NCBI GenBank assembly: GCA_018653365.1
Contig: JABIAG010000001.1
Span: 64,001 to 128,000, forward strand
Direction of reading: 5' to 3'
Length of the DNA: 64,000 bases
Source: Candidatus Woesearchaeota archaeon
GTDB taxonomy: Archaea > Nanobdellota > Nanobdellia > Woesearchaeales > JABIAG01
In this document: one piece after another, positions 25,487 through 30,187 of the stretch
How positions within the stretch are numbered: the stretch's first letter is position 1
Layout of the letters: each line of letters begins with the position of its first letter
Notes under the pieces: generated by a model
What the model was told of the DNA's origin: nothing
What the model saw: only the letters and a program-made list of their open reading frames with translations
Database searches by the model: none
Translations under genes and position numbers: made by a program

Positions 25487-28039
25487 ATGAAAAAAAGAGG
25501 GTTCTTAAGTCATGTAACTAATCTAATTCTCGCAGCAATAGTCATATTAGTAATAATTGTAATTGTAGCTAAATTCATGCAAGGACTCGGCGGAAACGAA
25601 TTTCATCCCGGAAGTGAAATGACCCTGGAACGAGTAAAAGAACAAATTGACATTCTCATGGATTCTGAAGAAGCTTTTGCAGAAACCACTCTCAGATTTA
25701 GCATACACGAAGATTATTTATTTATGGCAGGAGACAAATCATCAATTAAGGGCATGCCGTTAATCCAGGCAATGCTAGAAAACATTCCTAATCAGTATGC
25801 AGCATATAATCACGCAGAACCAAAATGCAAGGACCGATCTTGTGTTTGTATATTAAATCAAGATAACAAACCATTATGCAAAAGTTTTCTTAATGAAATA
25901 ACTTTTGTTGGAGAGGAAGGAAAAAATCCGCGTAGTCCACCATACCTGGGCTCACAAATTAGAGGCAGTCCGAATGGAAATGTAGCTCTTGCCAAATTTA
26001 ACTTAACCACACTTTATGTTGCAAAAATAGTAATTGATGATGACAGATCTGGAAAACAAACATTTGTTTACATCACTCCCATAATGAGATCTGGAACCTG
26101 GGGACTGACCATAGAACAAATCAGGGCAAAAATGGCCACGTTTAAAGAAAAAATAGCAGCTGCAGCCTACGAAAAAAACTACGAACTTGTTTCATGCAGT
26201 ACTGGCGCAAACGGATTTTATAGATCAACAGATGAAGAATGTTCACGATTATATCTGTCAGAAAATCATCAACAACCCTTTTATCCCTCGCCATCATCAC
26301 AAATAATAAGTTTAGGAAAACTAAAAGATTTCTATGAAGCAGAAGATAGGCTGTCCAAACCATATTGCTGTCAGGTAATAAATGCAGATACTGAATGTAC
26401 TTCTCAAGCATTACAAGGTTATGCAACCTGTTCAGACACCCTAAGTTGTAGCAGCATAAAATACACTAATCCCCATAATGGCAAAGAATTCCCCTCAATT
26501 TCAATAGGTTCAAGAGGGTGCGATTTTACTTGCTGTTACGCATACGGAGCAAAACCTCGAATATTAGAATTTAACTCAGCAGTATATTGTGAAGATGAAA
26601 TTAAAAACTATGAAGAAACTGATGTTGACTGTGGCGGAACAAAATGTGAAAAATGCGAATTAAACAAACGATGTGAAGAAAATACCGATTGTGCTGAAAA
26701 TTTAGTCTGTGAAGAAAAAAGAGATTACGAATTAGATGGGCGCGGGAGAAGATTAACCATTCCCGGCGGGTTCGTTTTTGAATGTAAAGGAGAAGAAAAT
26801 CAATCATGTACTAATATTGCTGATTGTAAATTCGGATTAAAATGTAAAGATGAAAAATGTGTACTAAAAGAAGAGGGAGACCTATGCGAAGCACCAGAAC
26901 ATTGCGGAGAGGGATTAATCTGTGAAATGCGAAAGTGTGTAGATCTAGAAAAAAGAGAGGAAGAAGCTAGATATAAACTATATGAAATCCAAATTCAGAA
27001 AGATTTTAACACATTTACTGCGGCTCCAATATATGCACCAGTAATTCTTCCTCAGGGTGAACAATTACCTAGTAATTATCGAGCACTAGGAATAGATTAT
27101 TTTGAGCCAACAAAACCGTTTAGTTCAATACTCGATGGTGAATTAGTTTATCAAGATGGAACAATATGTGAAAAAGAGGGGTTATGTTTAAATGAGCTAA
27201 CTTCTTGTGGTGAGGGATGTGAAGAATCAGAGTATTGTTGTTCATTTTTTGATAAGTGTATGAATTCAGAAAGTATAATTGATACATCACTCTATTATCA
27301 GTTTGAAGCGCCATTTTTAGATCCAGTTTATGTCAAGTTAGAAAATACGTGTTTACCAAAAGGGTACACTCCAGTGTTAATTTCAAGAGCGCCCTTTTTT
27401 TCTGTAAAAGAATATTCTGAAATAACTGATGCAGAATTTTTATTTAATGAAGATGAAATAAGAACCAAAGAAAGTTTAGAACTGGGAGAGGGAGGAAAAT
27501 TATACTACTTTTTTAAAAAATCTAAAGATGGAAATGAATATGCCCCAATATATGTTGACGCAACTAAAATTGCAAATTTACACTATACCTTGGAACAAAT
27601 AAAATATGGTAGTCAGGCATTATCAATATATTATAAAGATATTAAAGATGGAGAATTCATTTTTGAACCTAATCAGGGAGCATGTCCAAAAGGGTATGGT
27701 TGTCATGATATTATGGAATATAACTGTAAATCTGAATTAACTTGTGAAGGAGACGAATGTTGTTCAACAGATAGTTATTGTTGTGAATTTTCAGGAGAGT
27801 GCATTCCAAAAACAGCCTTTCAAAGTACTGATGAGTTTTATAGTTATGCCGGGCCATCAGAAGGATTCTTTTCAAAAATTGGAGAAAGATGCATTCCTCC
27901 CTTATCTTTAAAAACAAAAAGTTCAGAACCCTACTTCATAAAAAAAGATTATTCACAAATCTTAGGTTCAGAATTTGTTTTTTATCAAGGGGATGATTCA
28001 ATACAAAAAGCTACAATTGAGGAACAACAAAGTGAATAA
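25487..28039 (+). CDS. Large Cys-rich class III signal peptide protein with internal duplication
   Basis: MKKRG|FLSHVTNLILAAIVIL; ETDVDCGG module; duplicated ~150-170 aa C-terminal unit. Confidence 0.8.
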   Translation: MKKRGFLSHVTNLILAAIVILVIIVIVAKFMQGLGGNEFHPGSEMTLERVKEQIDILMDSEEAFAETTLRFSIHEDYLFMAGDKSSIKGMPLIQAMLENIPNQYAAYNHAEPKCKDRSCVCILNQDNKPLCKSFLNEITFVGEEGKNPRSPPYLGSQIRGSPNGNVALAKFNLTTLYVAKIVIDDDRSGKQTFVYITPIMRSGTWGLTIEQIRAKMATFKEKIAAAAYEKNYELVSCSTGANGFYRSTDEECSRLYLSENHQQPFYPSPSSQIISLGKLKDFYEAEDRLSKPYCCQVINADTECTSQALQGYATCSDTLSCSSIKYTNPHNGKEFPSISIGSRGCDFTCCYAYGAKPRILEFNSAVYCEDEIKNYEETDVDCGGTKCEKCELNKRCEENTDCAENLVCEEKRDYELDGRGRRLTIPGGFVFECKGEENQSCTNIADCKFGLKCKDEKCVLKEEGDLCEAPEHCGEGLICEMRKCVDLEKREEEARYKLYEIQIQKDFNTFTAAPIYAPVILPQGEQLPSNYRALGIDYFEPTKPFSSILDGELVYQDGTICEKEGLCLNELTSCGEGCEESEYCCSFFDKCMNSESIIDTSLYYQFEAPFLDPVYVKLENTCLPKGYTPVLISRAPFFSVKEYSEITDAEFLFNEDEIRTKESLELGEGGKLYYFFKKSKDGNEYAPIYVDATKIANLHYTLEQIKYGSQALSIYYKDIKDGEFIFEPNQGACPKGYGCHDIMEYNCKSELTCEGDECCSTDSYCCEFSGECIPKTAFQSTDEFYSYAGPSEGFFSKIGERCIPPLSLKTKSSEPYFIKKDYSQILGSEFVFYQGDDSIQKATIEEQQSE

Positions 28040-29030
28040 AAAAGGAACTAGCGATGTATTTTTAGTAATATTACAAATGCTAATTGTGGGACTAGTACTA
28101 GCATTTATGATAGCAAAAGTTGGAGCAGTAGATATAAGTTTTCTCAAACGTACAATTGTAGTGCAAAACTTAGGGATGGTAATGTCCGCAATCTCATTTC
28201 TACCTGGAAGTTTTAGTTATGCCTACCTAACAGAATATGACGAAAAAATGGCAGACTGGTTAAAATTTCCAGCAAAAATAAATGATAAAGATATTTTTTA
28301 TGATGAAAAAGCTGAAAATGTAAATTCAGGAAATGTAAAATATCAATTATTTATGAATGACATTCAATACGACCAATTAAACAGACTGGTGATGCTCAAG
28401 AAAAAAGCAATATTCATAGAAAAAGCAAATAAATTCATTACTTCAGATAAAGTAAACGAAGATCTCAGAAAGTTAGTTTGTGAAAAAGTAACTTATGATT
28501 TGAAAGTTAAATCACTAAATGGAGGAGATGAAACTAAGTTCTACACTGCAGAAGGCGAAGAAGTTACAAACGTAAATGAAAATTACGTCAATATGGAAAA
28601 ACAATACTTCCAGGAACAAAATCGCGTTTATCCGGGAAATAGGGGTTTAAAAAATGAAGACCAAGACGAGGCAACAATAACACAAAAACTAGCTGAACTA
28701 ATTAATCCAGTAACTGATGTATTAATACAACCCGAAACACTTAGCGAAAAACATATCTTGTTAACTGTGGGGGAATATGAATCCACTAAAAATTTCATGA
28801 TCATTTACGCACCAATAACAACCTTTGAAGACGATTATAAAATTGGATGCAACATACTAAATAATGTTTTAGACACAGAATTAAAAGATCAAATAGACGG
28901 AATAGCAATAATTCCCAGTTTAGGAAACCACATTATATTTGAAGTTGGAAACATGGCAAAACCAAACAACCCCCTTCTAATAAGTGAAGACAATCTAATG
29001 TTAATTGCAGAGGGAATAAAAAATGAGTGA
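28032..29030 (+). CDS. Class III signal peptide protein with degenerate Amidase_3-like C-terminal domain
   Basis: GTG start (M)NKKG|TSDVFLVILQMLIVGL; LLTVG...IIYA...KIGCNILNNV...IIFEVGNM follows the order of Amidase_3 motifs. Confidence 0.65.
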   Translation: MNKKGTSDVFLVILQMLIVGLVLAFMIAKVGAVDISFLKRTIVVQNLGMVMSAISFLPGSFSYAYLTEYDEKMADWLKFPAKINDKDIFYDEKAENVNSGNVKYQLFMNDIQYDQLNRLVMLKKKAIFIEKANKFITSDKVNEDLRKLVCEKVTYDLKVKSLNGGDETKFYTAEGEEVTNVNENYVNMEKQYFQEQNRVYPGNRGLKNEDQDEATITQKLAELINPVTDVLIQPETLSEKHILLTVGEYESTKNFMIIYAPITTFEDDYKIGCNILNNVLDTELKDQIDGIAIIPSLGNHIIFEVGNMAKPNNPLLISEDNLMLIAEGIKNE

Positions 29031-29541
29031 TGACGCACTACTTTACGATCAAACAATGTATATCATAAAAATGATTTTTCTAGCAGCAACAGTAATCACA
29101 ATAGTAGTCTTAACCTATGTTTTTTCATTTCAAACAATAAAAACAGACGTATTAGAGATACAAACATTAATCGAAGAAACATATTCGTCCCCCCAAGTAT
29201 TTGCATATCAAGACACATTAACAAAAAGAGCATATCCGGGCATTATTGATCTAGAAAAGTTCAAAACATTAAACCTCAATGAGATAATACAAACAAATAG
29301 AAATGACATCATAATGAAAGTACGCTTACTCGATGATGCTTCTGAAGAAGTAACCATAAAATACTTCATTCCTACTAAAGAGCCAACAGCCGAAGTTTTT
29401 CAAATAGCAGAGACACTAATTAAATACCCAGAAAGAACAACAACATTAACAGATTATCCTTTATTAAAACCTGTAACAATACTGAAAGATGGAGAAATGA
29501 AAAGAGGAACGCTAGAGTTTTATGCTATCAAACAAAAATGA
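29023..29541 (+). CDS. Single N-terminal TM protein of the pilin cluster
   Basis: TM MYIIKMIFLAATVITIVVLTYVF; no basic leader; overlaps both neighbours. Confidence 0.75.
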   Translation: MSDDALLYDQTMYIIKMIFLAATVITIVVLTYVFSFQTIKTDVLEIQTLIEETYSSPQVFAYQDTLTKRAYPGIIDLEKFKTLNLNEIIQTNRNDIIMKVRLLDDASEEVTIKYFIPTKEPTAEVFQIAETLIKYPERTTTLTDYPLLKPVTILKDGEMKRGTLEFYAIKQK

Positions 29542-30179
29542 GAATGAATAAACGAGGAGGGGGACCCTCAGATACAATAGTGTCTGTGTGGAGCGGGATA
29601 TTTTGGGTATTTGTAATTCTTATATTTGTATTGTTATTCAATTTAAGATCTTGCGTGTCAGGACACGAAGCAGGAGAACAAGCAATAGAAGGACAATTAA
29701 GCGAGATGGTAGATCAACATGACATCATGTTAACATATTTAACAACATCATTAGATTATTGTGACAGTTTAGATGCAAAAACTAAAACATTAACACACGC
29801 AGAACTGATAACGTTTTTTATGAAAGGTGTTCCTAAATCTATTACTGAAAGGCAAGTAGAAAAAAATGATTATGAAAAAAGATTTGAAAATAAGGAGTAC
29901 GCAAGATACCTCAAAATTTGGTATGACTGCAACAAGCAATATTTTGGACCTGAAAAAACACTAAAAATCTTAGTAAACAATTATTACAAGTACCCTAATA
30001 GTTTTAAAACAAAACTGCCCTTTGAAAATAAATTAATTAATTTAGAACTAGTGTTTGATAAAGGGTCAAAATTAGTTTTTGTCTTAAGTGAAGAAGAATT
30101 ACAAAAAATACTTGATCAAGAAGACGCCGCAGAAGAAGAATCAACACTTGATTGGGCAGTTATGCACGGAGCACCTTAA
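29538..30179 (+). CDS. Class III signal peptide protein
   Basis: MRMNKRG|GGPSDTIVSVWSGIFWVFVILIFVLLF. Confidence 0.75.
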   Translation: MRMNKRGGGPSDTIVSVWSGIFWVFVILIFVLLFNLRSCVSGHEAGEQAIEGQLSEMVDQHDIMLTYLTTSLDYCDSLDAKTKTLTHAELITFFMKGVPKSITERQVEKNDYEKRFENKEYARYLKIWYDCNKQYFGPEKTLKILVNNYYKYPNSFKTKLPFENKLINLELVFDKGSKLVFVLSEEELQKILDQEDAAEEESTLDWAVMHGAP

Positions 30180-30187
30180 ACATTAAA

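Follow-up and report, generated by a model that had tools for sequence, protein, structure and literature searches.

A predicted prepilin-type protein carrying a catalytically degenerate Amidase_3-fold domain in a Woesearchaeota archaeon

Gene organization and leader sequence

We analysed a 64,000-nucleotide stretch (hereafter the window) of contig JABIAG010000001.1, positions 64,001 to 128,000, from the genome assembly of a Candidatus Woesearchaeota archaeon (GCA_018653365.1). The genome is 1.09 Mb in size and approximately 95% complete. The window has a G+C content of 31-40% and encodes archaeal RPA and RadA. Its DNA was matched only in marine metagenome runs, possibly those from which it was derived, and the organism is uncultured and marine.

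The gene under study, here called the amidase-carrier gene, is the only member of its family in this genome, and look-alikes of its product in the protein atlas fell exclusively into unnamed Woesearchaeota/Nanobdellota clusters. The gene belongs to an array of pilin-like genes in the same orientation; a surface protein of more than 6,000 aa is encoded upstream. The features of the locus are as follows (window coordinates, strand, description).

28019..28023, +: GAGGA, a Shine-Dalgarno-like sequence 8 nt before GTG 28032, read from the sequence, with putative function
28032..29030, +: amidase-carrier gene, 332 aa plus stop codon (the stop ends at 29030)
28032..28046, +: class III (prepilin-type) leader M-N-K-K-G, predicted to be cut after G5
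28047..28127, +: hydrophobic alpha-1 helix, residues 6-32, a helix in the AF2 models and a putative membrane or filament-core anchor
28128..28481, +: N-terminal carrier domain, residues 33-150; a second helix (~35-55) and then beta strands, ending in the invariant Cys150
28488..29027, +: catalytically degenerate Amidase_3-fold domain, residues 153-332 (VIA-align, hhalign)
28518..28520, +: Asn163, at the position of the first zinc-binding His (DPGHG motif), from alignment with intact relatives
28527..28661, +: beta-rich, clade-specific insertion of ~45 residues (166-210), placed after strand 1 and before helix 1 and flanking the former active site
28668..28670, +: Glu213, equivalent of the zinc-binding Glu, retained (alignments, hhalign)
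28764..28766, +: Thr245, at or next to the second zinc-binding His (SxH motif), in an LLTVG segment lacking His
28848..28850, +: Cys273 in helix 3, near-invariant in the alignments
28941..28943, +: Glu304, equivalent of the catalytic Glu (xxExG motif), retained; FEVGN aligns with LEIGN
29023..32215, +: three co-directional genes on the downstream side (172, 213 and ~676 aa), found together with the amidase carrier in relatives (phmmer synteny)

The best start codon is GTG at 28032, which overlaps the stop codon of the upstream 850-aa pilin-like gene as GTGAATAA. The gene shares an eight-base overlap with each of its neighbours, at 28032-28039 on the upstream side and at 29023-29030 (ATG..TAA) on the downstream side. 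These overlaps are consistent with translational coupling along the array.

The N-terminus reads MNKKG followed by TSDVFLVILQMLIVGLVLAFMIA, with the predicted cut preceding TSD, and continues into a hydrophobic stretch of more than 20 residues. This is the archaeal class III signal pattern. G5 was invariant in family alignments A2/A3, and a K/R-G motif was present in nearly all relatives. The alpha-1 helix spanned residues 8-31 in the full-length AF2 model and residues 6-32 (pLDDT 92-97) when the carrier domain was modelled alone. We infer that the MNKKG leader is cleaved by a prepilin peptidase.

The C-terminal domain is related to Amidase_3 enzymes

An AF2 model of the full-length protein, built from a 17-sequence alignment, reached a mean pLDDT of 73, with values mostly of 78-92 over residues 150-300. 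When this model was compared with 48,161 PDB chains using VIA-align, ranks 1-9 were all MurNAc-L-Ala amidases (Z 7.2-8.8), with 127-145 residues aligned at an rmsd of 2.9-4.2 over model residues 153/155-332. The leading matches were 4rn7, CwlD (7rag), CwlV (1jwq), AmiB (8c0j), LytH (7tj4), 3czx, Cwp6 and AmiC (4bin). A Z near 8 is not decisive alone, but the uniformity of the leading ranks decides the matter: in the model, residues 153-332 have the Amidase_3 fold, as judged by their likeness to solved members.

Conventional searches were far less sensitive. PF01520 gave no match to the protein even at E values up to 1, and the Pfam output was only noise (Mab-21, E 0.68). Searches of PDB sequences by phmmer and hmmsearch with the protein, the 17-sequence family or a 5-sequence subfamily returned nothing meaningful. 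Foldseek against the PDB gave nothing below E 0.03 for either model, and the amidases surfaced only in the exhaustive VIA-align comparison. Few close relatives of the protein were detected in sequence searches.

Three distant family members scored slightly short of the PF01520 threshold, in matches spanning positions 18-174 of the 174 in the model. Across 401 genomes of the phylum, PF01520 had a match in 43, above the curated cut-off in 35. Many of the positive frames were ~330-370 aa long, and the positional orthologs scored 42-66 bits against a cut-off of 27. The 401-genome tallies for PF01520 and for the carrier described below include a few genomes flagged as unpublished (G242, G243, G321, G332 and G395). 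These were excluded from, or unused in, the tree, the counts of catalytic state and the synteny and M23-neighbour examples that are named, and none of the conclusions depends on them. The intact frames matched our protein in architecture, with a K/R-G leader, a hydrophobic helix and a carrier with the same landmarks ending in Cys, followed by a canonical amidase with the motifs DPGHG, a Glu, SxHxG, a KLAC-ILN helix and LEIGN.

The two forms were then linked by profile comparison. With hhalign, the degenerate family matched nine intact pilin-type amidases at a probability of 99.6% (E 3.5e-24, 275 columns), which rules out a chance resemblance. When the C-terminal domains alone were compared, degenerate against intact, the probability was 97.7-98.3% (E 2.5e-12 to 2e-14), and the intact C-terminal domains matched ordinary non-pilin amidases of the same phylum at E 1.6e-21. 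Direct comparison of the degenerate C-terminal profile with the ordinary amidases was weak (72.5% over 30 columns), so the homology of the degenerate domain to amidases rests on the intact intermediates and on the structural model. The domain shares common descent with Amidase_3 through these transitive profile links, backed by the structure.

A first-pass annotation, made by eye from the sequence, had proposed an amidase-like fold from five short motifs. All five lie in one open reading frame, and the span given for them, 28490-29030, corresponds to residues 154-332, the range that the structure search aligned to Amidase_3. Each of its motif pairings held against the intact relatives: KSLNGGD with DPGHG, Asn standing at the His position; ILLTVGEY with ISLHVGNY; NFMIIYAP with NIVYAYVP; KIGCNILN with KLACLILN; and IFEVGN with LEIGN. 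Among the checks it had named were the predicted fold and orthologs with intact H-E-H-E. The nine top VIA-align ranks answered the former, although Foldseek against the PDB missed them, and relatives of the latter kind were found in the same cluster slot. The amidase likeness is thus confirmed as real and far beyond chance.

Both zinc-binding histidines are replaced and the groove is remodelled

In the four catalytic columns of the HMM alignment, the protein has N-E-(T or gap)-E where the intact relatives have H-E-H-E. At the second His site, the ungapped register gives Thr245, and the HMM and hhalign registers give a gap. The His-Glu-His set of zinc ligands is accordingly missing (N163, E213, T245/gap). 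These columns, together with E304, bear out the earlier proposal that both zinc-binding His were lost and the last Glu kept; the zinc-binding Glu E213, absent from that annotation, is also retained. The domain is very probably not a zinc amidase, judging from these residues, and we infer that it has no enzymatic activity.

The surroundings of the former active site have also changed. The ~45-residue insertion corresponds to a gap in all intact relatives, contains strands at 182-201 in the AF2 model and is the least conserved region of the protein. Two loops were lost in the clade to which the protein belongs: one is the strand-2/Arg loop, the other a long loop preceding the last strand. Cys150 was invariant and Cys273 was found in all but one of 45 sequences; a disulfide between them, predicted from this conservation, probably ties the carrier to the amidase fold.

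Two further features were observed. His300 (window 28929-28931), four residues before Glu304, occurs in 8 of the 12 degenerate-clade members aligned but in none of the intact relatives, and would share a strand face with Glu304. In a same-genus genome (L034) and in protein P0006, the dead amidase contains an extra Cys-containing insertion of ~80 residues between helix 3 and the next strand.

The carrier domain and candidate pilus machinery

Modelled alone, the carrier domain formed a long broken helix (6-32 and ~35-56) followed by strands. Its best fold matches were type IV pilins and pseudopilins, which made up 13 of the first 42 rows; the matches were weak (Z 2.6-3.6) and included 7b7p (Z 2.6). 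The carrier module was present in 267 of the 401 genomes of the phylum.

The genome encodes a prepilin peptidase (Peptidase_A24, 51 bits) and a T2SSE ATPase (52-53 bits). No T2SSF platform protein (PF00482) was found in the genome by Pfam. On contig 3 (L081:4587-9102 in G000), the gene for a 756-aa T2SSE-type ATPase precedes one for a 747-aa protein that has approximately nine hydrophobic segments and no Pfam match; both lie far from the pilin array. The 747-aa protein is a candidate for a diverged platform protein of the assembly machinery.

The first-pass description of the protein as pilin-like was upheld by the class III leader, the conserved array of such genes and the prepilin peptidase. 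Since the leader, the array, the peptidase and the ATPase were all found while the likeness of the carrier fold is weak, "pilin-like" is well founded as a label for the leader and the operon.

Possession of such a leader does not in itself imply a filament subunit. The sugar-binding "bindosome" proteins of Sulfolobus provide a precedent for class III leaders outside pili, and by analogy the amidase carrier could be a membrane-tethered surface protein, with the leader serving only for processing and anchoring and the cluster encoding a surface complex. The failure of Pfam to find T2SSF and the weakly pilin-like structure of the carrier favour this possibility, as does a recent survey reporting that type IV filament systems are scarce in DPANN (PMC13705601). 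Against it stand the prepilin peptidase and the T2SSE ATPase, next to which a polytopic membrane protein is encoded, along with the small major-pilin-like genes that occur in the same cluster, here and in relatives. We therefore treat exclusive tethering as a distinct possibility, but one that we lean against.

A conserved cluster with murein hydrolases in relatives

The organization around the amidase carrier is conserved. Homologs of the 172-aa gene directly follow both intact and dead versions, and a homolog of the large gene comes next. Upstream of the carrier, relatives have small major-pilin-like genes and homologs of the first four genes of the array. In several genomes, with intact as well as dead versions, the cluster ends in genes for RPA and a YdjM-family protein. 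The adjacency of RPA and this YdjM-family membrane protein to the pilin-like cluster (window 32250-33666; L051-L056) was unexpectedly stable.

The cluster was also associated with a second type of murein hydrolase. A comparison of the coordinates of carrier and M23 matches showed that at least 16 genomes have a Peptidase_M23 match in the same orientation as the carrier and 1.7-3.6 kb downstream of it. An M23 domain scoring well above the Pfam cut-off often follows the dead form of the amidase carrier in relatives. In one genome whose amidase is intact, the large downstream pilin-like protein (homolog of window 30185-32215) contains Peptidase_M23 (L056:12083-14674, +), a domain missing from the copy in the window. 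In two related genomes (L078:830-1711, +; L079:589-1524, -), the leader and carrier are joined directly to a Peptidase_M23 domain, whose HxxxD and HxH motifs are intact, in place of the amidase fold. As either M23 or an amidase occurs on the same carrier, the carrier is a modular holder for murein-hydrolase domains.

The occurrence of intact Amidase_3 and/or M23 in the same cluster of relatives points to a murein-directed ancestry, and the cluster looks built to deal with bacterial walls. In the cluster of our genome and in those of same-genus and same-family genomes, however, no M23, SLT, Amidase_2 or intact Amidase_3 was detected. Neither SLT nor Amidase_2 was found anywhere in the genome, and PF01520 had no match in it. 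Its sole Peptidase_M23 gene lies outside the window and far from the cluster (L077:1204-1794, G000 contig 1) and encodes a 196-aa protein without a signal peptide, leader or membrane helix. A family search of the genome found no Mur ligase (Mur_ligase_M), and thus no murein or pseudomurein of its own, in keeping with the earlier statement that archaea lack murein.

The first-pass annotation had interpreted the protein as a pseudo-enzyme that binds bacterial peptidoglycan at a pilus tip, hinting at a bacterial partner or prey. Its pilin-like nature, Amidase_3 fold and replaced zinc-binding His all stood, and the interpretation as a whole is partly supported. The non-catalytic PGRPs of animals offer a comparison for a dead amidase that would act as a peptidoglycan- or muropeptide-binding module. 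Such a role would fit the murein-directed ancestry, the 14 relatives with intact H-E-H-E in the same slot, the M23 fusions and neighbours, and the retention of E213 and E304, which line the substrate groove. With no Mur ligase in the genome, any murein bound would be foreign. Published work also counts in its favour, with the proposal that Woesearchaeota target the walls of bacteria (PMC9723730) and the demonstration that bacteria are killed by archaeal peptidoglycan hydrolases (PMC12352652). The side of the groove, however, has been remodelled by the insertion after strand 1 and the two loop deletions, and nothing places the protein at a pilus tip. Furthermore, as the clusters of its own lineage contain no hydrolase, this lineage may have given up murein as a target. 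We consider murein recognition at a pilus tip a tentative and rather unlikely explanation for the protein in this organism.

Degenerate forms are widespread and conserved

To place the protein among its relatives, we compared the 27 best-scoring full-length loci from published genomes; 14 had intact H-E-H-E and 13 were degenerate. The degenerate patterns were K-E-H-E, H-E-R-E, F-E-S-E, R-E-R-E, G-E-S-E, Y-P-R-E, D-A-T-E, I-S-N-E and I-M-G-E, to which metagenomic homologs added L-K-Q-E and N/Y/K-E-gap-E. In a tree built without the four catalytic columns, our protein fell in a clade of 13 sequences, all degenerate, with a support of 100; elsewhere, dead and intact forms were interspersed. Parsimony gave eight changes of catalytic state, of which well-supported branches force only one. 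Because the replacements differ, repeated loss of the intact state is likely.

Twenty related genomes (L057-L076) encode proteins of ~280-335 aa in which the same carrier precedes a C-terminal domain too decayed for Pfam to detect; these proteins still keep the KLxC helix and a C-terminal ..EYY motif. We looked for another hydrolase domain in place of the amidase in the sampled ~300-aa relatives, and for a second, intact paralog in our own genome; neither was found, the latter in line with the single family copy. Dead forms appear to outnumber intact ones in the order.

Within the target clade, the amidase core is the best-conserved region of the protein. Identity to the two closest homologs, which are 64-69% identical to the protein, was 74% and 67% in the core, compared with 57% and 50% in the insertion. 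Cys150, Cys273, N277, P295 and E304 were invariant or nearly so across very divergent members, and the reading frame was intact in every genome examined. This conservation of the core favours a retained non-catalytic function over decay. That the C-terminal domain is a functionless relic, drifting since activity was lost, might be argued from the many ~300-aa relatives with an even more decayed C-terminal domain, but it is improbable given the conserved core, the (near-)invariant residues and the uninterrupted frames.

Least probable is a working enzyme with a rebuilt site (for example, E213, E304 and His300 or His241) acting on murein, pseudomurein or some other glycan with amide linkages. 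Nearly all members retain E213 and E304, and His300 recurs in the degenerate clade, but both canonical His are replaced by residues so variable (N/Y/K/H/F at site 1; T/S/N/gap at site 3) that a conserved new site is not what they resemble. Neither His241 nor His300 is invariant, and no Amidase_3 is known to work without its two histidines.

Discussion

The fold, homology, metal-ligand loss, synteny and conservation described above characterize a dead member of a family of pilin-anchored amidases. We interpret the protein as a prepilin-type surface protein with a dead Amidase_3-derived domain that has a binding or structural role in a complex, and assign this reading a probability of roughly 70%. 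In the proposed sequence of events, the N-terminal prepilin leader would be cut by the genome's prepilin peptidase, and the N-terminal helix would then most likely anchor the processed protein in the membrane or bring it into a type IV pilus-like assembly. The amidase-fold module would then be displayed as a non-enzymatic unit, kept under purifying selection for its binding or structural role. The protein is the positional ortholog of the intact pilin-anchored amidases, occupying a fixed slot in a conserved pilin-like cluster.

Candidate ligands for such a module are murein fragments, a different glycan and a partner subunit. Both the descent of the module and the hydrolases of relatives point to the bacterial cell wall as the ancestral target. 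In its own lineage, the remodelled groove and the lack of a hydrolase in the cluster call for caution regarding murein recognition. The retention of E213 and E304, together with the clade-specific His300, leaves room for unusual residual chemistry.

Compared with the minimal Amidase_3 murein amidases CwlD (7rag, 4rn7), CwlV (1jwq) and LytH (7tj4) and the AmiB and AmiC domains (8c0j, 4bin), the C-terminal domain has the same fold over ~130 residues (Z 7.9-8.8), with the same order of elements and with the positions of the zinc-binding and catalytic Glu kept. Like LytH and CwlD, the protein would be membrane-tethered by an N-terminal helix. It differs from the minimal enzymes in that both zinc-binding His are replaced, 45 residues are inserted after strand 1 and two loops are deleted. 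Its leader is of class III rather than Sec type, its host is an archaeon without its own murein, and it is missed by PF01520. Another comparison is with the intact pilin-anchored Amidase_3 proteins of related DPANN archaea (for example, L022, L024, L026, L029 and L038), which share its length, leader, carrier, Cys pair and cluster slot and are homologous to it from end to end. Unlike our protein, these keep H-E-H-E, pass the Pfam threshold, lack the 45-residue insertion and keep the two loops. Full-text literature searches returned no account of pilin-fused amidases in DPANN.

Grafting of a foreign domain onto a pilin has bacterial parallels. The modular type IV pilins PilB (von Willebrand A module, vWA; 7b7p) and PilC (lectin module) of Streptococcus sanguinis share with our protein a pilin-type N-terminus carrying a grafted domain. 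They belong to another domain of life and carry other modules, and for the archaeal protein incorporation into a filament is a possibility. Reuse of dead hydrolase folds for binding or regulation is likewise established: non-catalytic PGRPs have the Amidase_2 fold, and the degenerate LytM factors EnvC and NlpD control AmiA/B/C. Common to these and our protein is a murein-hydrolase fold that has lost its metal ligands and is nevertheless conserved.

In a broader scheme, a common carrier would present interchangeable murein hydrolases (Amidase_3 or M23), the cluster would be a bacterial-wall contact apparatus and the widespread dead versions, including ours, would be its murein-recognition or regulatory subunits. 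We regard this scheme as speculative and unlikely. If it were true, the dead amidase carrier paired with M23 in relatives would be the mirror image of the EnvC-AmiB pair in bacteria, in which a dead LytM factor accompanies a live amidase; the cluster of our own genome has no M23 partner.

The family is a natural series for the change from enzyme to pseudo-enzyme. It would be missed by surveys in which an archaeal peptidoglycan hydrolase must have a known wall-binding domain together with a Sec/Tat signal (PMC12352652). The prevailing view of DPANN archaea is that they live on other cells. In the conserved pilin-like cluster, a fixed slot is taken by a bacterial-wall amidase fold, with an active form in some lineages and a dead yet conserved form in others, and M23 peptidase modules occur on the same carrier or in a neighbouring gene. 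For the partners and contact machinery of the large Woesearchaeales-type groups, this arrangement offers a concrete, testable handle on whether such archaea touch bacteria.
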